From positions 259,118-323,117 of the forward strand of contig JBAZTA010000001.1 in the NCBI GenBank assembly GCA_041662125.1: DNA of 64,000 bases. The letters run 5' to 3'. Each line of letters begins with the position of its first letter. Position 1 is the first letter of the stretch. This DNA comes from Candidatus Omnitrophota bacterium (GTDB lineage Bacteria; Omnitrophota; Gorgyraeia; Gygaellales; Profunditerraquicolaceae). The position numbers were made by a program, and so were the translations under genes. Positions 4,797-64,000 of this stretch are shown here, in pieces. The notes under the pieces are model-generated. The model was not told the origin of the DNA, searched no databases, and saw only the letters and a program-made list of their open reading frames with translations.

Positions 4797-7700
4797 TTAC
4801 GCCGCCACTGCCTCTTTATTCTCTTCCTTGACCGCCGCCGGCTTATCTGCCGCAAACTTTACCGAAACGATCTTTGAAATACCAGACTCAACCATCGTAA
4901 TGCCATACATAACATGAGCATTGGCAATCGTACGCTTATTATGAGTAATGACAATAAACTGCGAAGTATTGGTGAAATCCTGGAAAAGCCGGCTAAAGCG
5001 GTCGACATTGGCCTCATCAAGAGCGGCATCAATTTCGTCTAAGATACAAAACGGAGCCGGCTTTACTTTAAATATTGCGAAGATAAGCGCTATTGCCGAT
5101 AAGGATTTCTCACCGCCTGAAAGTAAGAGCACATTCTGCAGCTTCTTGCCCGGAGGACGGCAGATGATCTCAATACCGGATTCCAAAGGATCCTGCTCAT
5201 CGATCAAATACACTTTCGCGTCACCGCCGTTAAAGAGCAACCGGAAATAATTCCTGAATTCCTCTGCTACTTTCTCAAAGGTCTCCAGGAACATCTTTCG
5301 GGTCGTGCGGTTGATCTTGTGTATTGCATCCTGGATCGAACTCTTGGCAGTAGCAAGGTCATTCTGCTGTTGAGTTAGAAAATCGTAACGTTTCTTCAAT
5401 TCATCGTATTCCTCGATCGCTACCAGATTTACCGTACCATATGAATCTATTTTTGATTTTAATGAATCAATCTCCTGGCCAAGTACGATCTCATCGATCT
5501 GCTCATCAACCATCGCAGGCTCAAGATTCTTTGCTTCAGTCACCGGCTGCTGGTTTTCCGCAGACACTTGTTCTTGAAGCACACCTTCCTGGGGAACTAC
5601 TTGGGCCGTATCTAAATCGATCTTATAAACCTGCAGGAGCCGTTCCTTAATGCTCATGTATTTAAAATCAAAGTCCTTTTCCTCCATCTGCAGGGAGTAC
5701 AATGTATCCTTTAAGACATCAATCCTTTTACGCTGGTTTTCGATGGCTTCCGATAACTGGCGGACACTGCCGGAAATCTCCCCATACCGGGTTTCTTCTT
5801 CATCTAAAGAACTGCGGCGGGCAACACAGTCGCTTTGTTCCTGCGCGATTTTCTCCGTTAATGAGGCGCTTTCCAGCTCAAGTGAGCTTTTACGGCTCAG
5901 GTTATCCTGGATCTGTTTTTCCAGATTGAGGATGTTTTCTTTATTATGATTATACGCATCTTCCAGAAGCTTGAGCGTATTGTCTTCGGTGCCTAAACGC
6001 CTGGATAAAGCCTCCAGCTCTGTTTTTGTCTTAGTTATCACCACCACGATCTCTTCCTTGATTGCGACATTTGCGTTAACCTTTTCCTGATGGCTATGGA
6101 TCAAGGACTCCTGGTCTTTTTGTAGTTTATCCAATTCGGCGAAATGCGTTTCACAAGAAGCCGATTTTTCATCAAGGCTTAAAAGTTCATTCCGCACATC
6201 GGACAATTCCAAAGCAATGATCTCTTCTTCCTCTTTGACTTTATTGAATTGTTCTAATGCCGCCTGGTGAAACGTATTCTTGTTGCCCAGAGCTAATTCC
6301 TGCTCCTGGGCCTTTTCCTCAAATTCCTTGATAGAAGCGGCTAATTCCTGCGTATGTTTTTCTTTCGCTGACTTGTCATTACGCAGCTCTACCAGCCTCT
6401 CTTCAAGCTGTGCTATCTTTTCACTGACCCGCACAGCATCTAAATCAATAGGCTTAGCCTCGCCTGCCAGCTTAAACCGCGCATCCTGCTGTTGGCCGTC
6501 CTGAGCTCCATTGCAATAATCTTTAACTTTGATCACCAGCCCGGTGATTTTCTCAAGCGGCATCTGATCCAGGTAAATCTCTGCGTTGAGGGAGGTATCA
6601 ATACTCTCATATTGGGTTTTAAGCTTCTCAAGGAATTCCCTATGCGACTCAAGCGCTGATTTCTGGCGTTCCAGGTTTTCCAAGTCAGTATGCAACTGCG
6701 CCAAAGAAGCTTTTTCCTGAACCAATGCTTGGCTTAACTGCGCCTCTTGCAATGTCAAAACCTGTAATACCTCCTGGACCTGTTTTAATTCTATATCCAG
6801 GCTGTTTAAATTCCCTTCAATGACCGCACGCTCTTCAGACACCTTAGCTTTTTCAATATCAAGCCGTTTTGAACGGGCAAGCACGACTTGTTTTTTCGAA
6901 GTAACATCAATAATATCGTTCTTGGCGAGGCTTGCCTTCGCAGCCAAATCCATGATAGCAGCTTTTGCCTGAGCTATTGTTTCTAAAGCGGCCTGCGTGG
7001 AAACGAGCAGGTCATTAAATTGCGCCTCTTTCTCTCTGAGTAAAATTGTTTTCTCCTCATAATGAGTGCGGATGGTCAACTCTTCTTCTTTAAGTTTACT
7101 TAATTTCTCTTCATCCAGCAAAAGCCTGGCCCTGGTCTGCTCAACCTGGGTTTCCAGGTACGCCTTGGCCTTTTCCATCTCCTTTAACCGCTCCTGATTG
7201 AAGGTTATATGCTGTTCATCGTGTGACAGGCTGTTTTCTAACGATAAAACCTGATTTCTAATTGCCGCGATCTTATTCTCTAGATCCCGCGCCTCCTGAT
7301 TACGCGCTTCAATCGCGCCTTCTGATTCCTGGATCGCATGATGCAAAGCCTCTTCTTCGTTCTTAAAAGCCGTAAGCTGGGACAACAGTTCATCGCGCTC
7401 TTTATTGAGCTTCTTTTTCTGGCAAAGTGCTCGTTTTATTTCTTTAGCCTTTAATATTTCAAACGCTTCTTTATACTTGCGCGCCTTATTTGCCTGGCGC
7501 TCAAGGTATCCGATGGAACGCTTTACTTCGGAAATAATATCGTTGACGCGAAGCAGGTTCTGTTCAGTCTCTTCAAGCCTGCGCAACGCCTCTTTCTTTT
7601 GCACCTTGTAACGGGTAATACCGGCCGCCTCATCAAAAACCATCCGGCGGTCTTCCGGGCGGGAACTTAATACCAGGTCAATCTTTCCCTGCGCGATCAA

Positions 7701-34164: not shown

Positions 34165-36276
34165 TTATCCCGTCAACATAAATTTCTTGTATTCAGGAAA
34201 TCGTTGCAGCAACTTTTCCTTTAAAGCGAAACTATTTCGTTCCCTTAAATCCGGATCATGCTCCGTAAGCCTGAGAGCTTCCTCCCGGGCAGTCTTTAAC
34301 AAATGCATCTGCGTCAGAGGATTGCCAATTTTAAGCTCATTCAAACCGTGCTGACGGCTTCCAAAAAACTCTCCCGGGCCACGGATCTTTAAATCTTCTT
34401 CAGCTATATGGAACCCATCACTGTATTTAACCATTGCTTCAAGGCGCGCTTTTGATTCTTCGGTCTTAGCCTCAGATATCAATAAACAAAAAGAGGCACT
34501 CACACCTCTGCCGACCCTGCCGCGCAACTGATGCAATTGGCTCAAACCAAAACGCTCAGCATGCTGAATGATCATACAGGTCGCGCTGGGAATATCAATA
34601 CCTACCTCCAGTATAGTAGTAGCAACAAGAAGGTCCAACTCTTTATTCCTGAATTTAAGCATGACCGCGGCTTGTTCTTCTTTTTTAAGCTTACCATGAA
34701 TAAGCCCTAACCGGAAATCTTTAAAATCTCCTGCTTTAAATTGCTCATACATCTTTTTAGCGCCGGCGATATCCAAAGCGTATGATTCCTCGATCACGGG
34801 ATATACTATATATACTTGGTTACTTTGCCGCATCTGCTCTCGCGCAATAGTATACGCGCTACGTTTGGTCATCTGAGTAAAATGCATAGTCGTAATGACC
34901 GGCCGGCCTGGAGGCAGTTCATTAATAACAGAAATATCCAAATCTCCATACAAAGTAATTGCCAGTGTCCGGGGAATCGGAGTTGCGGTCATGATCAACA
35001 CATCAGGATTTAAGCCCTTCTTTGGCAATAGCGCCCGCTGCCCAACGCCGAATTTATGCTGCTCATCGATAATAACAAGCCCTAAACTCTTAAATTCAAC
35101 AGCTTCTTCCAATAACGCATGAGTGCCCAAAACCAGATCAACCTTACCTTCACTTATCTGCTTAAAAAGGCGCTCTTTTCCTTGTTTTACTCCACTACCA
35201 GTCAATAATTCCATACGTATATGGGCTGACGCTCCACCTGCCGCAGCAAAGCGTTGCGCGAGATTTTCATAATGTTGTCTGGCCAATATTTCTGTGGGGG
35301 CCATAAAAGCCACCTGATAACCACCTTGAATAGCCATGAGGCTGGCGATTACCGCAACCACAGTTTTGCCGGATCCCACATCTCCCTGCAAAAGCCGCTG
35401 CATTACCTGAGGTTTATGCATATCAGATTTAATTTCTACAAGGGCATTAACCTGTCCTGTAGTTAAACGAAACGGCAATTTTTTTACAAAAGTATTTACG
35501 AGTTCCCCTTCTACAGTATGAGCAATACCATTTCTTTCTTTCCTTCTGGCCTTGCGCAAAGCAAGCGGTAGCTGAAAAAGCAAGAACTCTTCAAAAGAAA
35601 GCCGCCTATACGCCTCTTTCTGCGATTCCTGATTTTCAGGGAAATGAATATTAACAAGGCTTTTTGCAAGATTTAACAAATTATTACGCGCCCGGACATC
35701 ATAGGGCAAAAAATCATTAAGGTTTGTCAAATGCTCATCAAGGACAAGCTTAATCAACCGGCGGAAACTTCGCTGACCGATCCCCGCAGGCAAGGAATAA
35801 ACAGGAACGATCCTTCCCATATGCAAAGATTCATCCTGTTCTATCCCGTCCTGGTTATTTTCAGCAATAATTTCAAACTCAGGCGCACTCATCTGCAGCC
35901 TTCCGGCATAACGCTCTACTTTACCATACAAGATCAAACCTTGGCCGGCTTTAAAATATTCATGCAGATACGGCTGGTTAAACCACACGCAATACACAAT
36001 TCCGGTTTCATCAGTAACCGCAGCTTCCACAATACTAAAACCCCGCCTGCGAAACGAACGGCGCTGGCCGCGGGCAACGATATGCGCCTTGATCGTATAC
36101 ACAGCCCCTTCTTTTAAATCGGCGATCCGGCTGAATTGAGTGCGATCCTCATACCGACGGGGAAAATAATACAGCAGGTCTTCTATTGAATAAACGCCTA
36201 TTGTATTAAACGTCTTCTCTCTTTTAGGCCCCACGCCTTTAAGATACCGGATAGGGATATCGTTAGATTTTTCCAT
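34165..36276 (-). CDS. recG: ATP-dependent DNA helicase RecG
   Basis: Wedge domain followed by a superfamily 2 helicase (GDVGSGKT, DEQH). 703 aa. Confidence 0.9.
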   Translation of the reverse strand: MEKSNDIPIRYLKGVGPKREKTFNTIGVYSIEDLLYYFPRRYEDRTQFSRIADLKEGAVYTIKAHIVARGQRRSFRRRGFSIVEAAVTDETGIVYCVWFNQPYLHEYFKAGQGLILYGKVERYAGRLQMSAPEFEIIAENNQDGIEQDESLHMGRIVPVYSLPAGIGQRSFRRLIKLVLDEHLTNLNDFLPYDVRARNNLLNLAKSLVNIHFPENQESQKEAYRRLSFEEFLLFQLPLALRKARRKERNGIAHTVEGELVNTFVKKLPFRLTTGQVNALVEIKSDMHKPQVMQRLLQGDVGSGKTVVAVIASLMAIQGGYQVAFMAPTEILARQHYENLAQRFAAAGGASAHIRMELLTGSGVKQGKERLFKQISEGKVDLVLGTHALLEEAVEFKSLGLVIIDEQHKFGVGQRALLPKKGLNPDVLIMTATPIPRTLAITLYGDLDISVINELPPGRPVITTMHFTQMTKRSAYTIAREQMRQSNQVYIVYPVIEESYALDIAGAKKMYEQFKAGDFKDFRLGLIHGKLKKEEQAAVMLKFRNKELDLLVATTILEVGIDIPSATCMIIQHAERFGLSQLHQLRGRVGRGVSASFCLLISEAKTEESKARLEAMVKYSDGFHIAEEDLKIRGPGEFFGSRQHGLNELKIGNPLTQMHLLKTAREEALRLTEHDPDLRERNSFALKEKLLQRFPEYKKFMLTG

Positions 36277-36344
36277 TACAGTATTATAATATATAATGAA
36301 ATACGGGTAAAGGGATTAAAGGAACAAACAATCCATAACCCATG

Positions 36345-36587
36345 AAAAATGAACCTGCCGGTTTTTCTCGCTCAACACGATTTTCCGCCGCAAAGCTTGG
36401 CGGATGCCAATGATCTTTGGCATTTCGGTGGCTGCTGAACTCGTGTTTTTTGCTCTAGCAAAAAACCCTCGAACAGCATCGCCATCCCAAGATTGCCCCG
36501 CTCTCGCGGGGCCATGGGATACCCTCAATACCAAAGCTCCATTGGCTAAAATCGTGATTCGCTCAAAAAACCGCCAAGTTCATTTTT
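36345..36587 (-). ncRNA. Candidate structured RNA / rod-like palindromic element, copy 1 (about 240 nt)
   Basis: Homologous to 57639..57872. A 21-23 bp closing helix, conserved internal loops (gagcgaat / tgagcgaga), hairpins with GNRA loops (ccccgc GAGA gcgggg) and ttttttgc-taga-gcaaaaaa. Stems covary against copy 2. Confidence 0.55.
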
Positions 36588-36837
36588 AGCACTATTTATT
36601 ATTAGTCTACATCACCAAAATTTATTTAGAACTAACTGCTAACGGATGGCTTGGTTTAGTTTTGAGCAGGGCCTCTGGAAGCCCCGAGCGGGCACGGTTG
36701 CCCCTCGGAAGAATTATCGGGCAGAGCGAGGGGCTGGAAGGGAGTGCAGTCCTGCCACGCTGGGGCAGGACAAACGTCCCTGCGAAAAACAAACCAAGAC
36801 AGCCGTTACCTTATATATAATAATTAAGGTCAGCTTT

Positions 36838-36897
36838 CAAGAAAGTAAAAAGCCAAAAGGAAAAAGTGTTGATTATAACTTTTAACTTTTGGCTTTT
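36838..36897 (-). terminator. Rho-independent terminator of the giant gene
   Basis: aaaagccaaaagg...acttttggctttt, a 12 bp stem with a following T-run on the minus strand, 30 nt after the stop. Confidence 0.6.
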
Positions 36898-36924
36898 AAC
36901 TTATAACTTACCGGAAATTCCCAA

Positions 36925-39900
36925 TTACAGCTTTGCTAACGCTAACTGGCGGGAATCAAGTATCACCAGTGTTTCCCGAAGCGCAGCAGAACTTTCAGCC
37001 ACATCTTCTTCCTGCAAGCGGCAAATTTCAGCAAGGCAGACGACCAGATCATCTCTTCTCGACTGCAATTCACCTTTTTGAGAACACGCAGCTACCAATT
37101 CCTTAAGGCGTTCTCCCGAAGGCACTATACCGCTGGCAACCATGTTCTTGATCTGGCCAATTTCAACATCAAGGTTGATATTCGCCAATTCTCCCTTACT
37201 TAATAGCGGGAGCTTTAAATTAAGCCCTTCGAAACTTCCCATAGGCTTGGTAATAATATTCATCGTCCGGAAATCAATACCACCTTTTTTTATAGGAGAA
37301 CCTGCTGCCCGAACGTCCTGATTGACCAGAGGAGAAGAACCGCTATTTTCCAATGTCGCTAATAACGCTTGCAGCTCTTTTGCGGCACCACTGAAAGCTC
37401 CCTTAATTGTATCTTTCATTGCGGGATCATCTACGACAATTTGTTCAAATTGCTTTGCCTTAGCTTCTATAGCGCTTTTCAATATCGAAATATCAGCAGC
37501 GCTGAACACCTGCCCAGATATCTTTTCTATTGGTGCTTCCTGGCTGCCTGATTCACGCATTTTCAAATCTCGCAATAAGCTATGGTAAAAAGAATAGAGA
37601 TTGGTCTGACGGTTTAAATACGCATCAGTGACTTGCGAGAACCATTGACCCGCTATTTTCTGCACTGTTGACAAACCACTTAAAACAACGTCTTTATACC
37701 CATCTTTAAGTTCCAATAATTGCTCGCCGATTTCATGCACCTTTTGGCGCACTTTATCAGCACTCGGAATCGTCTTTCCAATAGCTTCCGTATAAAGACG
37801 GACCACAGGCTCTGTCCCGGAGAAACGGATACACAACCATGAACCATCGGTAAAGACTATCTTGTAGCCGTCAGCAAAAATAGATTCGGCTATTTTCTTT
37901 CCCCCAAGCTCTGTTATTGTTTTTGCCTCAAGGTTTTCCTTTAATTCATCCAACTGCGCCTTCAGCTGCGCTTTCAAATCATCAATTTTATCAAGCGATG
38001 TTTTAGCCCTTAAATCAACTCCGCCTCTGTTATACGCAAAGAAGCCGATCTCTGCTTGTAATTTCCCAGCCAACTGCTCGGGAGTAGCTTGAGAAACTGC
38101 ATTGATCTCAACCATCTTAAAGCCGGCGACTAAAGCATCTTTTTCCAATACAACATACTTCGGATCTTTCTCCTGGCTCTTAATATTGAGGCCTTGCGAC
38201 TCCTCACCTGCGATAAGCGCAGGGGTTTTGGAATCAGCCAAGAGGTACTGATTGAACCATTTAAAACCAACCTTGGTCACATACAACGGACAGGACCAAC
38301 GGTCAGCAATAGCCTTCATCATATGAGACGTAGGTATCGTGGTAGCAAGGGCGATATTCTCTTCATTGACGAATTTCTGGATCAAAGGTATAAGCCTTTT
38401 ATAAACAGAATCTTTGTCAATAAAAGAATCCAGGTCGTTGATAGCTACACCGGATTTAGCCAACAAAGCAGCAACATCTTCCCTGCCTTGGTTATTGGTG
38501 AGCCATTGAATAAACCTTTGCTGAATAAGATACTGTGCCTCAATGGCAAAGGTCATATTGGGATCGATAAAATTACCTTCGGCAGACACAACGCCATTTC
38601 TGTCGGCATCGGGATCAGCAGAGATGGCAATCGCCTTTTTCCCTTGCGACCTTAACTCATTAACACGATACACTAAATGCTTTGAATATTCTGCTGCCGG
38701 CTCAGGCCTGTCAGGTTTCGTTACACCTGTTTCAGGGTCCCATTGCGAGAAGCTCGGATCAGGCTCAGCGTTAATGATCTCATACTGTACCCCCTCCTTT
38801 AACCCAATAGCATTCATAATGGCCCGGTAATATTCAGTAGCTGAGCCGTGCTTTGGATCTATAACAACGTAATCGAGCACTCCTTTTTCGAATGCCGTAG
38901 CTATTGCCTTAAAATCAATTATTTCCTGTAATGCCTCGATATAGAGAGGCGCTACTTTGTCCATGCTCATGGCCGTAATATTGCGTCCATGGCGGTTTTG
39001 ATCAAACGGATTATCGTGCTTTGATTCCCGCAATGTATTGATATTCTTCTGCAAAGGCCCGGTGATCTCCTCTTCCGCAGGCCCTGAATGCGCGGGATTA
39101 AACTTCAGGCCATTATTATTGATTTCAACAACCGACCCATCGTCTTTGGTGATCTGATAACCGCGGCCGGGGTTATGAGAAGCGGTAAAATAAAGTGAAC
39201 CCGCTGTCTTAAGCCTGCCGATCAATACCGAAACAACCGGTAAAGGACAATAATGATCGACGAAATAAACTTCAATCCCCAGCGACGCGAGTTTCTCGGC
39301 CGCTAACCTGCTGAGGTCCAAATTGGTATACGGACCGGTTGCACGAGTATCGCCGCTGATAAGTACGCCTTTTCTTCCCGGATTTCCTGCCTCTTGCAGG
39401 CGGATCTGATCAGCAGCAGCAGTTACAGTCGCGTAGAAATCGTTCAAGAACCATTCCTGCATGAACACGCCGTCTTTCATATACTGGCTTTCATCAAAAC
39501 GCCATCCCGAAGTACCGAACTTAATGGGATTCTTCGTGACGAATTCAGAATATGAAGTAATAGACGATGAGCTAAACCGGGGTACTAAAGGCTTATCCCC
39601 ATCATCTTCAGAAGTGATCACTGCTGTGCCCGCTTGCGCTGATGCAACAGAACCACTTAAGAACTTCTGAACCTGCGCAAAGAATTGCTGCATATCACTG
39701 ACAGCTCCATCCGTAGTCGCATCCGCAGTAATAAGAACCGCTTTACGGTTACTCGCAACCAATGCTTTGACCGTGCCGATGGTTTGCGCTTTGATTAGAT
39801 TCTCTGAATATTCAAGAGCGCTCGGCTGATCTACCTGCATAGGCATAAAATAGGTTGATAAGAACATTTCTCTTCCTGCTTCTATGTTTTGATGGAAAGA

Positions 39901-42900
39901 GTGGTTCTTATCAGGGCCTTCGCCTAATTTAGCCGCCATTTTTAAACCATTAGTAAAGATATCATACCGGGCAGCTTCTAATACTTCCCGTAACCCGGCA
40001 GTCATTCTTCCGTAGGACATAAGCTCAAGCGCCTCAAAACCCGGCTTGCTCTTGAGGATAGTAATAATTGCCGCATAAACTGCCGGCGCATTATTGAGAT
40101 CAGCCCCCAACCTCTCCAACTCAGCATTCAACTCTCTTTCACCGATATGATGAGTGGCCAGAAGCGGGCCATAATATACCTTCAAAGTATTAAATTGCGA
40201 ATACTTCCATTCAGCCGGAACAGAAACCTTTTCTCCCGGAGCTACCTTAGCCATTACTTCACGAGTCCCCTTTTTATACCCTTCTACCGCCGGCTGATCA
40301 ACAAAACAGATATCCCACAAATATGCGATCGAGGCCACTGTTCTTTGAAAACCAAGCATTATACCGCCGATAGAATCTTTATCTTCGACATTAATGTCAA
40401 ACAGAGGGTAATTATTATCTTTAAGATAAGCACCCAACTCAGAATTTGTTTCCTCACCCTTAAAGTTTATACGGACAAATACGCGGTCATTGGTATCAGC
40501 CGGCAATAAATTCTCGGAGCTTAACTTCTCCCCGTAAAAAAGCGTCACACCTTTCCCGTCTTTACCCAATGACTCTTCAAATAACTGTTCTGCCCAGATA
40601 GAAATATCCTTCATCTCCTCAGGAACGATCAAGGTCATTTTATCTTTGCGTTCGTTCTTAGCGTAAGAGTAGAGGAATGCGGCAAGTTTAAGGAACATAT
40701 CGCCGTTTTCACCCTGATTCATCTTTTTGGCAGTACTTAAAACCTGCCAGACTTTTTCCGGAGCAACTAACGCCATCGGCAGGAGGAATATATTTGTCGT
40801 CGGTGCGGTAAACCGTCCGCCGATATCTCCTTTTCCATTGAGTTGAATTTCTCTCTGATTATAATCCCCGGTATCCATAGGTGAGCCTTTATCAGTGACA
40901 ACCCACATGTGATCTTTTGCATCTAAACCGGATTGGCCGAAAAGTGTTTCAAAATACCTTTTATGAGAAACTGTTTCTTCGGTAGTCCCGGATTTACTAA
41001 TAGGAATAACCAAAGTCTTAGCAAGAGCATTTTCCAATGAACCTTCTTTAGCGGCTATCTCATTAAGCATATCAGCGATAACTGCAGGATCAGTGGTCCT
41101 GAGGCTGTAAATCTTTACTTCCCGTTCGCCAAAGGTTGTTTTTACTGTTTGCACTGATAATCCTGAACCACCCATGCCGCAAAAGATCACATAGGTATAT
41201 TTATTACGAATTGCCTCGGCGTCTTCTAAAACAGCATTGACTGCTTGAGGATTCTCAAACAACCAGTTCAGATTCATCATACCCCAACCTAAACGGTTTG
41301 CTTTACCGTCAAAACCAATTCTGGCAAAAGTCGGATCTAATTTTATTGCGTCCTCTTGAGACAAACCATAGAGTGAATTTAAGCGTGCTTCGGCTCGTTC
41401 ACGTAACAATTTATCAAAAGATTCTTTGATCACTGTTTCATTTACGATATTCAACGGTGAAGCAGCAGAAACAACACTGCGTGCATCCAAATACGCCTGC
41501 CGAGCTAACGCCGCAGGAACAATGATCAAAGATTTATCCCCATCCTGGTCGTTCGCTAAAGAAGCATCCATAAGCGCATATTTTAATCCTACGACATCTC
41601 CAGCAGTAACAATAAATGTATCATTAACATAGAAGCTTTTTTGCTTGCGAGACAAAGTTTGATGAATATTAACGATCCCTAACCCTGCCTCTTTTGCCCT
41701 GACAATACGGGCATCATTTTCATTAACATCATCGGTGATAACCACTTTCTTTACACCGGCAAGCTTGAGAGCCTCTGCGGTAATATCAGAGGTATATGCT
41801 CCCGGCTTATTAGAAGAAAGCTGATCTATCGATACTGCCAGCTCCATGCCTTTCGGCAGGGACTCTTTGCTCAGATCCAAAAGATCAACCGGATTCTCAC
41901 CTTTTAACGCGCGATCAAAGAGTATCATATCAGTATCGTTAACCGCGAAGAAGATACGGATATCATTTTCCAGGTCAATACCTTGAAGGTTATTATTAAC
42001 GAACACGGCAAAATCCATGAGTTCGCGTAAATACTCTACTTTCATCTTCTCCCCGCCCACTTCAGCTTTCAAATTAAAGCCTAATACCGGGATACGGCCG
42101 GAAAATGTCCCGGCAGCTTTTTGGTTGCGGACAGTTTCAACTATAGTCTTGATCAAAGTTAATGCTGCTTCTTTAGTTAATGAAGCTCCTCCGATAAGCC
42201 CGCCGTCGACATTGACCATCGCCATAAGATCAGCGGCAGTCTTTGCGCTCATACTTCCACCGTATTGAATAATTATTTTATCTGCTTCACCAGGAATGAT
42301 CTGAGAAAGTATCTCATTTCTAATGAACGCCTGCACCTCATCAGCTTCTGATGATTTTGCCGGACGTATGGCTTTCGGGCCGATAGCCCAGATCGGTTCA
42401 TACGCAATGATGGTCATTAAGATCTGCTCTCTGGTAAGGCCGGCTAAACCTTCAGTAACTTGCGCGCGGATAAAATCCCATCCCGCTTTAGTAAGATCAC
42501 CATTGGCATCACGCATGTTTGCCGGTTCTCCCATTGCCAAAACATTGATCGTATTAAAAACATCATGTGATTGAGACAAAAGCGCATTGACTTTATTATT
42601 GTCTAAATTATATGCTTCTCTGGTTTCAGAGTGGCCGGTTAAAGCGCCATCCGCGCCTAACGACCTAAGCAAGACCAAATCCGATTTGTCATTCGCCTGC
42701 ACCATTAAGCGTACAGGACGATATTGGCCGTCTTTCTTGGTCCATTCTCCTTGAAGAGGCGAGCCTGCGGATAGAGACTGGGCTTTGGTAACTTCAAAAT
42801 GCTCCTTCGCAGATAGATAGACCGCATTCATGATCGCGTCTTCTGTCTTCTGATCAAGCATGTTCATCAGTTCCTGGTCATATCCCCTGACTTTCTTATC

Positions 42901-45300
42901 CCAGACTTTCTTTTCCTTTGTATCACTTAAATCTGTCAACCCTAAAAATACCTTTGCTTCTTCTGTGATCGTAGGCTGTAGTTTCGTAACCACATCCCAT
43001 ACTATATTCTGCCAATGCGTACCAATATTCCCGTTCCTAATTCCAACTCCCGCTAACACCGGGAACAATTCCTTGGCTGTACCCGTGATCCCATGCTGAT
43101 TGATCCGGATCCCCCATCTCTGATATATCGCGTCATTGATCGCTTTCGTCCGGTCCAAATCTATCTTCATCCCGGGAACATTACCATGCTCAGACCCATT
43201 ATTAATTGCCATTAATACAGGTAATGAATTTATTCCCTGTCTTTCAATCCCTTCCAAAAACGCAATCGCTTCGGCTACCGTAGAGAGTGCATTATGGGTT
43301 CCAACTATTTCCCCGATCTCACCTTCCCACGCGCTCTTCTCTATCCCTGTCCGCTTCACGATCTCCGCGGTTACCTCATAGTTCCTTCTCTGCTGTTCTG
43401 TTTCTGTCGCTTTCGTAAAATCTACCAGCTTTGAACAGTCTATCGCATATGAACCGAACCCTGCTTCCTTTGCCATCTCCACGAACATCACCACATGGTT
43501 GATCGCTTCAGGAGTATCCTTGCTCACCGTCGCATGATCCAATTTCAACATCCAGCTCCCCGTAAACCCTTCTTGCTGCGCCGCTATATTGGCATCCCAC
43601 GCTAAATCCGCAGGTAAATAATTGTCCACAAATTCCGAAATAGACCTCTGTATAATTACCGGCGCTCCTGTTTCCTTCGCCGCGCGGAATATACCACGCA
43701 ATGCCACCGGGTTCCTCATGTTCACGCTCAATACTATTACATCCCCCTGCTTCTCTATCTCTTTATAAAACTCTCGGCTCTTCTCTATTCCTATAGGTGC
43801 CGAAAAACTCCTTGTTGCAATAGGTGAACCGGATGCGCGGGAATTCAATACCAAAAGGCTTGATTCCAAAGCTTGCGCAATTTGAGCAGGCATTAACGCG
43901 TCTTTCTTTAAAATATATGTACCTTTTGAGCTATCTTTATAAACTAAGGAAACGGTAAAAGGATAATCTCCCTGCTCTTTCACATGAAAACCAGAATAAA
44001 CCCTGCCAGTTTCATCAGTTAACCCCTTTATTTCAACGCTTGCATGCAGATTTCTATACTTACTATTTGCGGCTTTGATCCTCTGGCCTATAATTAAAGC
44101 ATTTTGTTCATAGACATTTTGGGAAACAACAGGAGAACCTGAAGATTTCTTTCCTTTGCCTTTTTGAGCTACAAACATTTCTCCGGTTAAAGGCAAAGTA
44201 TCTACAGAAACTAACCCTCCTTTACCAGCCATGATTCCCGGCATATCTAATACGCCGCCGTATTTATTGACCGCTATTCTCGAAAAATCTTCACCGCCGC
44301 TAAAATAGCTCCTGATCACCTGTCCCGAAGGAGTACGCACCGGCACCTTAATATCATATTCTCCTTCTTTAAAAGATTTCTGATATGCTTTAAAATAGGT
44401 ATTTTTTGACCAATTCTCTTTGGAAGTCAAACCTGTTAACTCATTTTTATCTATAAGCGCGGGATATTGCCCTGCTTTACCTGCGAATTGAGATTTAAAC
44501 CAGCGGGATAATACCAGCGAATAAAAAACCTGGCGAAGAGAGGCGTAACGCTTTGCCGTATTGATCTCTTTAGTAAGTTTAGGAATAATCAACTCACGGA
44601 TAATTTCAGAAGAATACTCATTTAACGCCTTCATGCGGGCATCTTTAAAATTATACATCGAGGAATCTTTCAGGTAATCCTGTTCCAGCATGACTTTCAT
44701 CGTGGCTTTATAGATGTAGGCGCTATCACCGCTTTCTCTGATGATAATTTCATTAGGCACTATCCAGGGACGGGTCAAAGTTGGGATAGAAACATTTTCA
44801 GTGCCGAATAATGCTTCGGCTTTCTTATATAATTTATCCCAGTACAATTTCCCTTCAGTAGTTTCCGGAGAAGTAAACTTTGCGGTATCTTTCTTAAGTT
44901 GCAGGTCAGCTTCTAACATGATCTTGCCGACATCAGTCATACCCAGCTTATTATCGATAACCTCATTCTCAGAGTCCGGCCTTAAATTAACCCAGAAAGT
45001 ATCATTGGTAAGAGTTACTCCAATAAGAAAATAATTTAATAACGTGCGGGTCGATGCTTCAAGTTCTGAAGACCCAAGATTCTTGACATCGCCACGATCC
45101 AAAAGGACCTTAAGATTATCGCCTGTGGAGTCGTAAGAGAAATACCGTAGATGGACAGGACGGAATTTGTCCCCGACGAAATTGCTGTGTACTTGAGAAA
45201 GGTAATTGCCCAGCTTTAATTCTGCGGCAACCTGAGCAAAACTTACTTGTTGAAATAAAAGTCCAAAACTCAGCACCAAAGAAACAATCTTACGCACCAT
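36925..45300 (-). CDS. Giant secreted multi-domain protein: signal peptide, unknown N-domain, class II fructose-bisphosphate aldolase, triosephosphate isomerase, degenerate TPI-like repeat, glucose-6-phosphate isomerase, phosphoglucomutase, unknown C-tail
   Basis: Uninterrupted 8376 nt ORF. Signal peptide MVRKIVSLVLSFGLLFQQVSFA/QV. FBA motifs KLDHAT, EHGN, INQHG and GIRNGNIGTHWQ. TPI motifs GHSETRE, AYEPIWAIG, YGGSM and GGASL. TPI-like segment GAYTSDITAEALKLAGVKKVVITDD. PGI motifs GMGGSG, ISKSGTTEET, GGRFT and FVDQPAVEGYK. PGM motifs FGTSGWR, TASHNP, DPDADR, GEESQG and RFSGTEPVVRLY. Confidence 0.8.
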   Translation of the reverse strand: MVRKIVSLVLSFGLLFQQVSFAQVAAELKLGNYLSQVHSNFVGDKFRPVHLRYFSYDSTGDNLKVLLDRGDVKNLGSSELEASTRTLLNYFLIGVTLTNDTFWVNLRPDSENEVIDNKLGMTDVGKIMLEADLQLKKDTAKFTSPETTEGKLYWDKLYKKAEALFGTENVSIPTLTRPWIVPNEIIIRESGDSAYIYKATMKVMLEQDYLKDSSMYNFKDARMKALNEYSSEIIRELIIPKLTKEINTAKRYASLRQVFYSLVLSRWFKSQFAGKAGQYPALIDKNELTGLTSKENWSKNTYFKAYQKSFKEGEYDIKVPVRTPSGQVIRSYFSGGEDFSRIAVNKYGGVLDMPGIMAGKGGLVSVDTLPLTGEMFVAQKGKGKKSSGSPVVSQNVYEQNALIIGQRIKAANSKYRNLHASVEIKGLTDETGRVYSGFHVKEQGDYPFTVSLVYKDSSKGTYILKKDALMPAQIAQALESSLLVLNSRASGSPIATRSFSAPIGIEKSREFYKEIEKQGDVIVLSVNMRNPVALRGIFRAAKETGAPVIIQRSISEFVDNYLPADLAWDANIAAQQEGFTGSWMLKLDHATVSKDTPEAINHVVMFVEMAKEAGFGSYAIDCSKLVDFTKATETEQQRRNYEVTAEIVKRTGIEKSAWEGEIGEIVGTHNALSTVAEAIAFLEGIERQGINSLPVLMAINNGSEHGNVPGMKIDLDRTKAINDAIYQRWGIRINQHGITGTAKELFPVLAGVGIRNGNIGTHWQNIVWDVVTKLQPTITEEAKVFLGLTDLSDTKEKKVWDKKVRGYDQELMNMLDQKTEDAIMNAVYLSAKEHFEVTKAQSLSAGSPLQGEWTKKDGQYRPVRLMVQANDKSDLVLLRSLGADGALTGHSETREAYNLDNNKVNALLSQSHDVFNTINVLAMGEPANMRDANGDLTKAGWDFIRAQVTEGLAGLTREQILMTIIAYEPIWAIGPKAIRPAKSSEADEVQAFIRNEILSQIIPGEADKIIIQYGGSMSAKTAADLMAMVNVDGGLIGGASLTKEAALTLIKTIVETVRNQKAAGTFSGRIPVLGFNLKAEVGGEKMKVEYLRELMDFAVFVNNNLQGIDLENDIRIFFAVNDTDMILFDRALKGENPVDLLDLSKESLPKGMELAVSIDQLSSNKPGAYTSDITAEALKLAGVKKVVITDDVNENDARIVRAKEAGLGIVNIHQTLSRKQKSFYVNDTFIVTAGDVVGLKYALMDASLANDQDGDKSLIIVPAALARQAYLDARSVVSAASPLNIVNETVIKESFDKLLRERAEARLNSLYGLSQEDAIKLDPTFARIGFDGKANRLGWGMMNLNWLFENPQAVNAVLEDAEAIRNKYTYVIFCGMGGSGLSVQTVKTTFGEREVKIYSLRTTDPAVIADMLNEIAAKEGSLENALAKTLVIPISKSGTTEETVSHKRYFETLFGQSGLDAKDHMWVVTDKGSPMDTGDYNQREIQLNGKGDIGGRFTAPTTNIFLLPMALVAPEKVWQVLSTAKKMNQGENGDMFLKLAAFLYSYAKNERKDKMTLIVPEEMKDISIWAEQLFEESLGKDGKGVTLFYGEKLSSENLLPADTNDRVFVRINFKGEETNSELGAYLKDNNYPLFDINVEDKDSIGGIMLGFQRTVASIAYLWDICFVDQPAVEGYKKGTREVMAKVAPGEKVSVPAEWKYSQFNTLKVYYGPLLATHHIGERELNAELERLGADLNNAPAVYAAIITILKSKPGFEALELMSYGRMTAGLREVLEAARYDIFTNGLKMAAKLGEGPDKNHSFHQNIEAGREMFLSTYFMPMQVDQPSALEYSENLIKAQTIGTVKALVASNRKAVLITADATTDGAVSDMQQFFAQVQKFLSGSVASAQAGTAVITSEDDGDKPLVPRFSSSSITSYSEFVTKNPIKFGTSGWRFDESQYMKDGVFMQEWFLNDFYATVTAAADQIRLQEAGNPGRKGVLISGDTRATGPYTNLDLSRLAAEKLASLGIEVYFVDHYCPLPVVSVLIGRLKTAGSLYFTASHNPGRGYQITKDDGSVVEINNNGLKFNPAHSGPAEEEITGPLQKNINTLRESKHDNPFDQNRHGRNITAMSMDKVAPLYIEALQEIIDFKAIATAFEKGVLDYVVIDPKHGSATEYYRAIMNAIGLKEGVQYEIINAEPDPSFSQWDPETGVTKPDRPEPAAEYSKHLVYRVNELRSQGKKAIAISADPDADRNGVVSAEGNFIDPNMTFAIEAQYLIQQRFIQWLTNNQGREDVAALLAKSGVAINDLDSFIDKDSVYKRLIPLIQKFVNEENIALATTIPTSHMMKAIADRWSCPLYVTKVGFKWFNQYLLADSKTPALIAGEESQGLNIKSQEKDPKYVVLEKDALVAGFKMVEINAVSQATPEQLAGKLQAEIGFFAYNRGGVDLRAKTSLDKIDDLKAQLKAQLDELKENLEAKTITELGGKKIAESIFADGYKIVFTDGSWLCIRFSGTEPVVRLYTEAIGKTIPSADKVRQKVHEIGEQLLELKDGYKDVVLSGLSTVQKIAGQWFSQVTDAYLNRQTNLYSFYHSLLRDLKMRESGSQEAPIEKISGQVFSAADISILKSAIEAKAKQFEQIVVDDPAMKDTIKGAFSGAAKELQALLATLENSGSSPLVNQDVRAAGSPIKKGGIDFRTMNIITKPMGSFEGLNLKLPLLSKGELANINLDVEIGQIKNMVASGIVPSGERLKELVAACSQKGELQSRRDDLVVCLAEICRLQEEDVAESSAALRETLVILDSRQLALAKL

Positions 45301-55267: not shown

Positions 55268-55801
55268 TTAAAAGCGGGTTTTGAAAACGTAAGTAAATCC
55301 ACCTTTGCTGAATTCAGGCTTACCTTTAAGCTTAAACACTCTTACACTACATTTATCTTTAACCCACGCCTCAACTTCTTTCGCTTTATAATACGGGGAC
55401 CAAATATCGATCCCAAATACCTTTGCCCACTCTTGGCGTATCATCTTTTCTTCGCTTACCTTTGGCGTATTATAGAACGAGCGAAATGCCTGACGGCTGG
55501 CGGCGATAGTGTCGCTGCGTCCTTGCTCCAAGTATTCTCTCGGCAACAATTGAAATTGCGGCCACTGCACAGGCTTATCCATGAAATCATCGGAGTTATC
55601 ATAGAGATGCTCAAGGATTTTTTCTCGAGGCTCTATAACATTATTTTTCATTATGATGATTTTCTCAAGAGCTACGATATTCTCTCTTGATAAGAAGCCA
55701 TACGGGATTTTTGGGTTAACAAAAGCATCCTGAGCAGCAAGAGGCACAGTGAGATACCCAATTAAACATACTAAGACTACTACTCTGATAATCAAATGCA
55801 T
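55268..55801 (-). CDS. Hypothetical secreted protein
   Basis: Start MHLIIRVVVLVCLIGYLTVPLAAQDA (signal peptide) with a GGAGGG SD. Confidence 0.45.
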   Translation of the reverse strand: MHLIIRVVVLVCLIGYLTVPLAAQDAFVNPKIPYGFLSRENIVALEKIIIMKNNVIEPREKILEHLYDNSDDFMDKPVQWPQFQLLPREYLEQGRSDTIAASRQAFRSFYNTPKVSEEKMIRQEWAKVFGIDIWSPYYKAKEVEAWVKDKCSVRVFKLKGKPEFSKGGFTYVFKTRF

Positions 55802-56069
55802 CGCGCCCTCCGGAAACAAAAAAACCTATTCTCAAAAGAATAGGTTTGCAAAATGCGGTGTTTACTTCGGCAACCCAGCTGCCTTTCTTTAGATCAAGTG
55901 AAGGCCTGTGGCTTTGCGTCCTACCCTTTCGGGAAGTTTGCCTTTTCGTTCATTTTATGACATAACTTCTTAGTTTCTAAACAGTTTACTCCTAATTAAA
56001 ATATAACATATAATCGAACATATTACCATGTCGCTTGGCAAGTAAATTAATAGATACGAGTCTTCACCT

Positions 56070-57407: not shown

Positions 57408-57638
57408 AAATAACGCCTCCTCTCTCGATTAGTATTTATTATACCTCACCAAAAATAAATCCCAAGTACTTTTCAAGGAAGTCAAACCGGGTCACCAGTG
57501 CCCCAGTGTTATCGATATAAAACAAAAATTCCCAAGCCCTTATTGGGGGTTGGGATATTTGTTTAGGAACCTGATTATTTATATATGGTTATGTACAACG
57601 TCTAGGAATCCCAGCCAATAAGCTTGTCAACTCTAAAA

Positions 57639-57872
57639 TGCCCCTGTCAATTCTCGAGCGAATGTCGATTTTAGCAAAAGCAGCTTGAGCAGCGAGGGCA
57701 TCCCGAGGCCAGCCGAAAGGCTGGCAATCTCGGGACGGCGATGCTGTTTGAGCACTTTTTACTAGAGTAAAAAGTACGAGTTCAGCAGCCGCCGAGCTGC
57801 GAAAGATCTTTTGCGTAATCCCGGCTTTGCCTGGATATAAAATCGACCTGAGCGAGAGAATTGGCAGGGGCA
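57639..57872 (+). ncRNA. Candidate structured RNA / rod-like palindromic element, copy 2
   Basis: Reverse-complement homolog of 36345..36587. Closing helix ugccccugucaauucuc with gagaauuggcaggggca. GNRA hairpin cagcc GAAA ggcug. A-T hairpin acuuuuuac uagag uaaaaagu. Ends at a bidirectional terminator. Confidence 0.55.
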
Positions 57873-57910
57873 TTTTGGGTAGAAGATAATTTTGTTGCAT
57901 TCGGCGGAGT

Positions 57911-57953
57911 AAATAAAAAAGCCAGAGAAATTAATCCCTGGCTTTTTTATTTT
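57911..57953. terminator. Bidirectional terminator shared by the rRNA operon (minus) and the candidate ncRNA (plus)
   Basis: agccagag...ccctggct stem flanked by an A-run and a T-run. Confidence 0.6.
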
Positions 57954-57956
57954 AAG

Positions 57957-58069
57957 GAGCACCGACCTACTCTCACATACCCTTACGAGTACACTACCAT
58001 CGGCCCTGAGGGGCTTAACTACCGTATTCGGAATGGGAACGGGTGTTTCCCCCTCGGTAAAAGCACTCC
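57957..58069 (-). rRNA. rrf: 5S ribosomal RNA
   Basis: The reverse complement reads ...GCCGATGGTAGTGTACTCGTAAGGGTATGTGAGAGTAGGTCGGTGC. Confidence 0.9.
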
Positions 58070-58159
58070 AAATATTTTTGCTTTATTTGAAAAGCAATTT
58101 AGAGTATCAACAACTACAAATATAAGGTAAACTTACAATATAACAACCGAGAAAAAAGT

Positions 58160-61525
<3,366 letters not shown>

Positions 61526-62179: not shown

Positions 62180-63773
<1,594 letters not shown>

Positions 63774-64000
63774 TAAATCTAGAAAATTTGCATAAAGGCT
63801 CTTTGATTATTTTTTATTAACCTCAAAAAATTGACCTGCTCAAATCTGTAAAAGATTCAAGCTGGCCTCGCTTGGCTATTCAATTATCAAAGAACAAGAC
63901 AATTCTTGAAATTCTTAAAATTTATTGTTATGGGTTAAAACGCGAAAAGATTGTGCTTTCGTGCGGTGAAAAGAAAAGCGCCCCGACAAATCCTGGGACG

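Follow-up and report, generated by a model that had tools for sequence, protein, structure and literature searches.

What kind of element occurs twice, in opposite orientations and with the same elaborate potential for folding, within a 64-kb stretch of a Candidatus Omnitrophota genome (the window, meaning the whole stretch of DNA that was analysed), and does it act as a transcribed RNA, as a repeat or as a site in the DNA? An earlier note, made from the sequence of the window, had described it as a structured RNA-like element of about 240 nt that resembled no family known to its author; it is called E here, and loci outside the window are labelled L001 and so on. The comparative analysis favours, with a probability of roughly 0.6, the reading that E belongs to a family of genes for structured non-coding RNAs (ncRNAs) of ~220-270 nt that is specific to Omnitrophota and has not been described before; the RNAs would act in trans via a protein or as a scaffold. 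E is rated here as a new family within a known kind, the orphan structured bacterial ncRNAs.

Scanning the window with a covariance model of the family detected exactly two copies of E, on opposite strands and 21 kb apart:

36345-36587, minus strand: E copy 1, the whole structured RNA, ~243 nt, read from the sequence (covariance-model match 36343-36586, 235 bits, E-value = 1e-58; fold z = -11.1)
57635-57879, plus strand: E copy 2 (covariance-model match of 240 bits, E-value = 6e-60; fold z = -11.4)

The placement of both copies and their alignment over ~240 nt, as reported before, are therefore seen in the sequence as well as by the model, and the blocks gagcgaat, ggcgatgctgtt, acgagttcagcagcc and tgagcgaga are indeed invariant between the two. 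The folding energies of the window copies are -125 and -129 kcal/mol, the z-scores given above being relative to dinucleotide shuffles, and 0 of 200 shuffles fold as well as either copy. In the two-copy consensus, 17 of 75 pairs have changed on both sides while still being paired.

Investigation of one genome per GTDB species, using a pattern composed of the two longest invariant blocks of E, revealed 18 loci in 11 metagenome-assembled genomes (MAGs), which are labelled Candidatus Omnitrophota or, for three of the MAGs, Planctomycetales. A looser pattern run on the JGI metagenomes yielded further copies of E among at least 120 rows, most of these being chance matches in ABC-transporter genes; this pattern also fits the coding sequence of the ABC-transporter ATPase (LFELVGL...HEFSGGQ). 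The covariance model was built from an alignment of 32 distinct full-length copies and was run on the window and on the fetched loci, where it added one copy missed by the patterns (in L014). The total comes to at least 36 copies, 222-273 nt long, in at least 11 MAGs and on metagenome contigs, with 1-4 loci per MAG in the genome scan and the model search of fetched loci, and with 2-4 in several MAGs. What had been taken for a two-copy element is instead a family, of which genomes carry 2-4 or more diverged paralogues. The range of the family is restricted to Omnitrophota as far as the scans could see. The plasmid, phage and IMG/VR collections contain no E-like sequence, and a phage or plasmid origin was rejected on the lack of a match in those collections; an exact-sequence look-up of the RecG protein for sister contigs returned no record.

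Regarding relatedness within the family, window copy 1 is 83-86% identical to the copies in L003 and L016 and 71% identical to window copy 2, and because it is nearer to the copies of other genomes than to copy 2, the paralogues appear to be old. Identity between copies of the same genome ranges from 69 to 95% and is mostly below 87%; the L007 and L011 copies of E are 95% identical, and there are recent duplicates or converted copies in some genomes. Orthologous copies were detected at syntenic sites across species (L001/L010/L012/L112; L005/L011; L006/L050), and between L012 and L112 E is 98% identical, as against ~90% for the coding flanks. Two copies in L014 (4030-4271, minus strand, and 5308-5559, plus strand) are divergently oriented ~1 kb apart, with an open reading frame (ORF) of 119 aa without a Pfam match between them.

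Regarding the fold, RNAalifold was applied to the 32-sequence alignment, and the pair counts were set against column shuffles and against partners slid by 1-3 columns. Of the 66 pairs predicted, 40 have compensatory changes on both sides, compared with 17.9 +/- 2.2 in column shuffles (0 of 500 reach 40) and 8-17 with slid partners, and standard pairs account for 97.3% of 2111 cells, compared with 87.8% in column shuffles and 34-45% with slid partners. Compensatory changes are present in all seven helices, even in the outermost pairs of the closing helix (columns 9-259, AU 22, CG 6, UA 1; columns 10-258, AU 21, CG 8, UA 1). This covariation, far above both controls, upholds the earlier claim of a conserved, strand-specific fold as opposed to a plain DNA palindrome. 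A terminal helix of ~20 bp leads via a GAGCGA/GAGCGA motif, a second helix and a long irregular rod to a three-way junction, from which branch a variable, usually GNRA-capped hairpin and a highly conserved arm whose internal loop is UUYGAG/ACGAGUU, the overall shape being that of a long rod ending in a Y. The parts of copy 1 are the following:

36565-36587, minus strand: closing helix P1, 5' strand aaaaaugaacuuggcgguuuuuu, pairing with 36345-36367; 17 of 19 pairs compensated across the 32 copies
36345-36367, minus strand: closing helix P1, 3' strand gaaaaaccggcagguucauuuuu, from sequence, fold and pair counts
36559-36564, minus strand: GAGCGA, 5' half of the symmetric GAGCGA/GAGCGA internal motif, nearly invariant in the 32 copies
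36368-36373, minus strand: GAGCGA, 3' half of the symmetric internal motif, from sequence, alignment and pair counts
36548-36556, minus strand: helix P2, 5' strand cacgauuuu, pairing with 36376-36384 (columns 33-41 with 227-234)
36376-36384, minus strand: helix P2, 3' strand aaaaucgug, from pair counts
36522-36547, minus strand: inner rod, 5' strand agccaauggagcuuugguauugaggg, in long-range pairing with 36405-36426 (helices 3-5), replacing the hairpin 3 proposed earlier
36405-36426, minus strand: inner rod, 3' strand gaaaugccaaagaucauuggca, from RNAalifold and pair counts
36385-36403, minus strand: optional variable side hairpin ccgccaagcuuugcggcgg, branching from the rod; length and sequence vary, and it is absent from 9 of the 32 copies (e.g., L007, L009, L012, L017)
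36484-36520, minus strand: hairpin 1 with GAGA tetraloop, peripheral and variable; it covaries (columns 80-111, GC 17, AU 13, CG 2)
36427-36483, minus strand: most conserved arm, GGCGAUGCUG-UUYGAG-(hairpin 2, loop UAGA)-ACGAGUU-CAGCAGCCRCC (helix 7)

Three of the helices proposed from the two window copies, namely the closing helix, hairpin 1 with its GAGA or GAAA loops and hairpin 2 with its UAGA loop, are backed by the 32 family members. The proposed hairpin 3 (ugccaa-agauc-auuggca) is not the conserved fold; its bases form covarying long-range pairs of the rod, in which GCCAAUGG pairs with CAUUGGC and GCUUnGnnAUU with AAAUGCnAAAG (columns 51-190, AU 19, UA 13; columns 64-180, CG 23, UA 8). 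The pairing of the closing helix is kept by compensation, as had been stated, but its sequence is not free: most copies share one consensus, AAUGAAUCUGnCGGuuuu paired with aaaaCCGnCAGAUUCAUU, of which window copy 2 has a rarer compensated variant. In several copies (L008, L015, L096) this helix runs 5-11 bp further into unrelated flanks. The edges of conservation are sharp, E beginning with yTAAAAAUG and ending with CAUUwA (end consensus yTAAAAAUGAAYCUG ... CAGRUUCAUUwA).

Further inwards, helix P2 covaries at columns 33-234 (GC 22, CG 8) and 38-230 (AU 19, GC 9, CG 3), and the apical stem of the conserved arm at columns 135-154, 136-153 and 137-152. The central G-C/C-G pairs of the GAGCGA/GAGCGA motif are columns 27-241 and 28-240; read antiparallel, the motif would consist of G.A, A.G, G-C, C-G, G.A and A.G, and it may form tandem sheared G.A steps. 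The tip of hairpin 1 has at least three forms among the copies and carries a large insertion in L027. The invariance of the conserved arm is partly imposed, because the copies were collected with patterns from that arm (12+15 fixed bases for the genomes and 10+11 for the metagenomes). An intergenic motif of other metagenomes shares only the sub-module GGGGUGCUGUUUGAGUGAAG-hairpin-GGAACGAGUUCAGCCC with E (L023:940-1060, L034, L041, L061, L095, L098, L099, L102, L123); it is often an inverted pair followed by a GUGACUUUUUGU...ACAAAAAGUUAC hairpin, and it has no match in Rfam. The UUUGAG/ACGAGUU internal loop may represent an RNA module that recurs.

As to which strand, and which molecule, carries the fold, G-U and U-G pairs occupy 91 cells of the 32-copy alignment and A-C and C-A combinations 12, the counts being 34 and 12 once two fixed wobble pairs are left aside. 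U.G pairs are kept at columns 42-196 of the inner rod in 29 of the 32 copies and at columns 129-160 of the conserved arm in 28. The covariance model gives the window copies 240 and 235 bits in the sense direction vs. 44 and 37 bits in the antisense direction, with ranges of 235-251 and 22-48 bits, respectively, across copies, and the sense fold is more stable than the antisense fold in 31 of 32 copies (on average -113.8 vs. -101.5 kcal/mol). E thus displays what is generally asked of a structured RNA, compensatory pairs of one strand above background controls, and the covariation, the G-U excess and the strand asymmetry together favour a transcribed RNA of the named strand. A role in the lagging-strand template is unlikely, because the window copies sit on opposite strands 21 kb apart.

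Regarding gene context, the neighbours of the window copies are RecG, an RsmD-like methyltransferase, a nitroreductase, a 2791-aa ORF and the rRNA operon, and this gene inventory agrees with the earlier note that no reverse transcriptase, transposase or toxin gene adjoins either copy. Elsewhere the neighbours are unrelated housekeeping genes, including those for PurD, RuvB-like, MiaB-like and TtcA-like proteins, aminoacyl-tRNA synthetases and others. A census covered 149 proteins within 3 kb of copies of E and the top 25 of 166 Pfam families, to which the statements on recurring neighbours made here and below refer; no family matches more than 4 of the 149 proteins, the repeats reflecting synteny groups, and neither transposases nor integrases/recombinases nor reverse transcriptases recur. 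E is strictly intergenic, often 0-30 nt from the flanking genes, and about seven copies are co-oriented with both neighbours while eight are opposed to both. Next to copy 2 lies a terminator-like site:

57914-57949, no strand assigned: A-run, G+C hairpin and T-run, a bidirectional terminator-like site, read from the sequence, between copy 2 and the 5S rRNA gene (57954-58070, minus strand), which is convergent with copy 2

The weak Rfam leader and small-RNA matches at this site are terminator look-alikes.

A second structured element, named U, lies 51 nt upstream of E copy 1 in the same orientation, preceded by a possible promoter:

36640-36808, minus strand: element U (fold z = -6.5; nhmmer family matches)
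36812-36840, minus strand: possible promoter TTGAAA-17 nt-TATATA, which would place the start at the first base of U

The promoter scan omits this site because its second hexamer is without the final T. The U family is ~170-190 nt long, and 26 of its 32 predicted pairs are compensated in 13 copies; it has the closing helix UUAGCGGG/CCCGCUAA and the invariant motifs CCCCAGCGUGG, CUCGCUCU and AACCnUGCCCGCUC, and no match to Rfam. U was detected in the window and in L066, L027, L017, L005, L055, L007, L054, L016, L011, L002 (two copies), L012, L109 and L010. In the profile search 15 of the 36 copies of E are preceded by a co-oriented U, and none is followed by one; two further partial matches on the opposite strand may be short U variants, and diverged or short U-like remnants are found upstream of other copies of E, window copy 2 included. 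The tandem arrangement suggests a common precursor of U and E. A 7-nt pairing of U (CUCGCUC) with E (GAGCGAG) was considered and rejected upon inspection of one locus, L016, in which U has no change to match the E variant AAGCGAA.

The gap between U and E measures 9-61 nt in nine loci and 565-1079 nt in six, where one gene, on either strand, is present between them. These genes encode an Mrr_cat nuclease, a Schlafen AlbA_2 protein, an ORF6N protein and unknowns. In L002 there is an additional U, followed by genes for a Zeta toxin and a DMT_6 protein, resulting in a short U-gene-gene-U-gene-E series in this locus alone; in L112 a Polbeta nucleotidyltransferase gene accompanies a short U variant. 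Near-identical genomes differ in the accessory genes that they carry between U and E, L012 and L112 being collinear at ~90% identity save for the U-E segment. The segments of single accessory genes between U and E, with genes on either strand, are:

L012:2167-2913
L112:12405-12767
L109:3693-4190
L011:1984-2958
L002:5905-7823
L010:5005-5607
L001:3138-3821

Some further observations concern the surroundings of U and E. The sequence just upstream of U in L027 (3130-3200) ends in GGTTCGACTCCTGTCAGGCGCAC, resembling the 3' end of a tRNA gene, so that U and E would follow a tRNA gene there. Degenerate tandem arrays with a 7-nt period occur within ~300 nt of U or E in three genomes (window 36873-36910; L003:1834-1934 and 2312-2456; L016:5548-5573), their units being AAGTTAA/T in the window and AGTCACA, TGACCTG and AAGTTTA elsewhere. 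The array of the window overlaps a terminator-like hairpin after the 2791-aa ORF (36925-45300, minus strand), which ends ~120 nt upstream of U.

Regarding known RNA families, neither window copy of E matched any of the 4227 models of Rfam 15 (6S, SRP, Y RNA, HEARO, OLE, ROOL, GOLLD, raiA, riboswitches, ribozymes and group I/II introns included), either at the gathering threshold or at an E-value of <= 10, where permissive filters gave only chance look-alikes of miRNAs, lncRNAs and terminators far below threshold on both copies; the earlier failure to place E in a known ncRNA family therefore stands. At the gathering threshold, the sole matches in the window were the rRNAs of one bacterial operon, two tRNAs and a c-di-GMP-I riboswitch. 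No description of E was found in the searchable literature on ncRNA of Omnitrophota/Omnitrophica, and the main genomic study of Omnitrophota annotated RNAs with Rfam only (PMC10066038).

Several other identities were considered and rejected. There is no tRNA or tmRNA, permuted forms included, at E or U. The words UGCUGUU and AGCAGCC recall domain IV of the SRP RNA, but there is no Rfam SRP match, several copies per genome are unfitting for an SRP RNA, and the pairing register of E differs from that of the 4.5S RNA of E. coli. Mimicry of rRNA was dismissed, only chance 8-12-mers being common to E and the 5S, 16S and 23S rRNAs of the window. A coding function was rejected on inspection: ORFs overlap E on both strands, but the substitutions are paired changes in helices, and the indels in hairpins, of varying length, seem too irregular for a reading frame.

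Among characterised systems, OLE, ROOL, GOLLD, raiA and HEARO are like E in having long, elaborate folds with much covariation and invariant nucleotides in internal loops and junctions, in being lineage-restricted without a single downstream gene, and in having been found before their function. E differs from them in lacking an Rfam 15 match, in its smaller size (~240 nt), in having several paralogues per genome, in its linkage to the second structured element U (15 of 36 copies) and in its range, Omnitrophota only by the present scans. The bacterial Y RNAs YrlA/YrlB and 6S-1/6S-2 resemble E in the long closing stem formed by their ends, in having paralogues and in acting in trans via a protein, which serves as the working model; yrlB-yrlA is also a tandem arrangement of two structured RNAs, comparable to U-E. 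E is unlike Y RNA and 6S in being a branched rod, where those have a central bubble or a tRNA-like domain; Rfam gave no match of E to Y RNA, YrlA or 6S, and neither rsr nor any other fixed neighbour was seen in the census. The msr-msd of retrons shares with E the flanking inverted repeats that close a structured ncRNA of ~200 nt, and defence-type genes are sometimes near; unlike a retron, E has no reverse transcriptase beside the window copies, none recurring elsewhere, and no Rfam match. A guide RNA of IscB or TnpB (omega RNA, reRNA) would adjoin or overlap an iscB or tnpB gene and have a guide segment at one end; no such gene was found beside the window copies or in the census, and there is no HEARO match.

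According to the favoured ncRNA reading, the E RNA of the named strand would be the functional molecule, with its ends paired in the ~20-bp helix, and would act in trans as a stable protein-binding or scaffold RNA and not as a regulator of the adjoining gene. It would often be produced in tandem with U, as the downstream one of the two RNAs, and the DNA between U and E would tolerate the gain and loss of single accessory or defence-type genes. Binding of a protein, a scaffold or a decoy role would be likelier than pairing with mRNA, since E is nearly all paired, has its invariant nucleotides in non-canonical internal loops and offers no conserved single-stranded seed. Insertion into the spacer, one of the few dispensable ones in a compact genome, can account for the accessory genes between U and E, and a breakpoint at the edge of E is to be expected because E is a constrained element. 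This is the best-supported reading because the branched, strand-specific fold is under strong purifying selection, the paralogues are old, orthologues are retained and there is no fixed protein-coding partner. The family with its fold, strand and copy number, the lack of such a partner and the linkage of U to E are direct observations, from which transcription, action in trans and protein binding are inferred.

A number of observations weigh against it. In the aligned copies there is neither a conserved -35/-10 promoter upstream of E nor a conserved intrinsic terminator downstream, and promoter-like sites are not consistently placed upstream of other copies of U, being plausible in some loci only. 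The yTAAAAAUG at the 5' edge of E, which is -10-like, was rejected as a promoter of its own, as it is part of the covarying closing helix. E is antisense to both flanking genes in about half of the loci, so that a sense RNA would need a promoter there, and none was identified. Related genomes carry E in reversed orientation between identical flanking genes (L016:5583-5833 vs. L018:2504-2743 and L050:12870-13100 vs. L092:510-746), inversions which the long terminal inverted repeat could mediate, and the 5' edges of E (L012rc 5867, L112 12799) and of U delimit the segment swapped between L012 and L112; such inversions and such a segment end would also be expected of a recombination-prone palindrome or of a recombination site.

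The main rival explanation takes up these points by proposing that E is an ERIC-like repeat or one like a miniature inverted-repeat transposable element (MITE), that is, an imperfect intergenic palindrome which spread or was duplicated within the genome, is co-transcribed with the operon around it and acts, if at all, in cis on mRNA stability, processing or termination. As in ERIC and MITEs (Correia, RUP, BOX), E is intergenic, a few hundred bases long or less, bounded by terminal inverted repeats that form a long stem (~20 bp with a family consensus), found in either orientation, often close to genes, and present in several copies per genome; the in-place inversions in related genomes, the very similar pairs within genomes such as L007/L011 and the lack of a promoter or terminator of its own would also fit. 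In contrast to these repeats, E has no target-site duplications, with a flanking direct repeat of at least 2 nt in only 3 of 32 copies when the terminal helix is extended as far as pairing goes, and its copy number is low (two in 64 kb, 2-4 seen per MAG); in the window, the genome scan and the fetched loci, the many near-identical copies of recent bursts, with insertion polymorphism, were not seen. Its paralogues are old (69-86% identical) and are retained at orthologous sites across species, including orthologues antisense to an operon in which the sense U.G pairs are intact (L001, L010, L012, L112), and its ends covary like an RNA helix. The strong strand asymmetry would not be kept by a symmetric palindrome acting both ways, and the compensated, branched interior with its sequence-invariant loops is as conserved as the ends. 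The possibility raised in the earlier note, that E might turn out to be a multi-copy MITE with conserved terminal inverted repeats, thus holds for the copy number and the terminal-helix consensus but fails for the other hallmarks, and the repeat explanation as a whole is judged unlikely. More easily set aside is the idea that E is a cis-acting 5' leader (riboswitch or attenuator) of recG. Copy 1 does lie ~70 nt upstream of recG in the same orientation, as reported (the recG start codon is at 36276, 68 nt past the end of E), but copy 2 faces the end of the rRNA operon without a downstream gene, the genes downstream of other copies are unrelated (HAD hydrolase, MiaB-like, TtcA-like, PurD, nitroreductase-like and others) or, in about half of the loci, on the opposite strand, and a separate promoter-like site is present between E and recG. 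Because the other copies have unrelated neighbours in either orientation, the position upstream of recG appears incidental, and the gene contexts effectively refute a leader of recG.

The genes between U and E lend themselves to a further explanation, in which both elements would be attC-like recombination sites, folded as single-stranded DNA, bounding single-gene cassettes and read by a recombinase through their structure. Sites of the attC type measure 57-141 bp and have variable centres and R'' (RYYYAAC) and R' (GTTRRRY) cores. Those of integrons (e.g., the Vibrio cholerae repeats) resemble E in their strand-specific, compensated structure, and the ends of E are sharp; one accessory gene lies between U and E in six loci and two more between the two U copies of L002, and some copies of E abut single small accessory, toxin or defence-type genes which differ between close relatives. 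L012 and L112, near-identical outside a swapped segment that ends at the 5' edges of E and U, and the in-place inversions of E agree with this proposal as well, and in our own reading the base of U, where an asymmetric internal loop separates an outer helix from a second one, is reminiscent of R-box, spacer and L-box. However, E at 222-273 nt is two to four times longer than attC and has an interior conserved in sequence, its ends AAUGAAYCUG and CAGRUUCAUU are without either core, and its copies are dispersed among housekeeping genes and not arrayed. No integrase recurs within 3 kb, the cargo genes are in either orientation, the window copies are oppositely oriented 21 kb apart, and ordinary turnover beside a constrained gene would likewise leave a breakpoint at its edge; recombination sites of this type are accordingly considered very improbable. 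It is also conceivable, at long odds, that U and E delimit, as its structured 5' and 3' elements, a gene-cassette slot of Omnitrophota that has not been described so far. The two would normally abut, and single toxin, nuclease or defence-type genes would be inserted and swapped between them; the folds would then serve as recombination sites for some recombinase, or as RNA caps controlling the captured gene by sense/antisense read-through from U to E.

Two other features of the window were noted besides E and U. The c-di-GMP-I riboswitch (55866-55952, minus strand, 81 bits) is located upstream of a 183-aa ORF (55268-55819) without a Pfam match. The 23S rRNA match (58162-61525, minus strand) is 3364 nt long vs. 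2925 model positions and the 16S rRNA match (62183-63775, minus strand) 1593 nt vs. 1533, and since the matches exceed the model lengths, both rRNAs carry insertions, for example near model positions 590 and 650 in the 23S and in the 5' domain of the 16S.

The Omnitrophota are uncultivated, ultra-small and probably host-dependent bacteria. Such covariation in an RNA family with several paralogues across the phylum makes a dedicated biochemical role of E likely, and E adds a well-defined class to the short list of large bacterial ncRNAs without an assigned function. The link to U, and the accessory genes located between the two elements, raise the further prospect that these RNA genes may mark or organise places where genes turn over rapidly.

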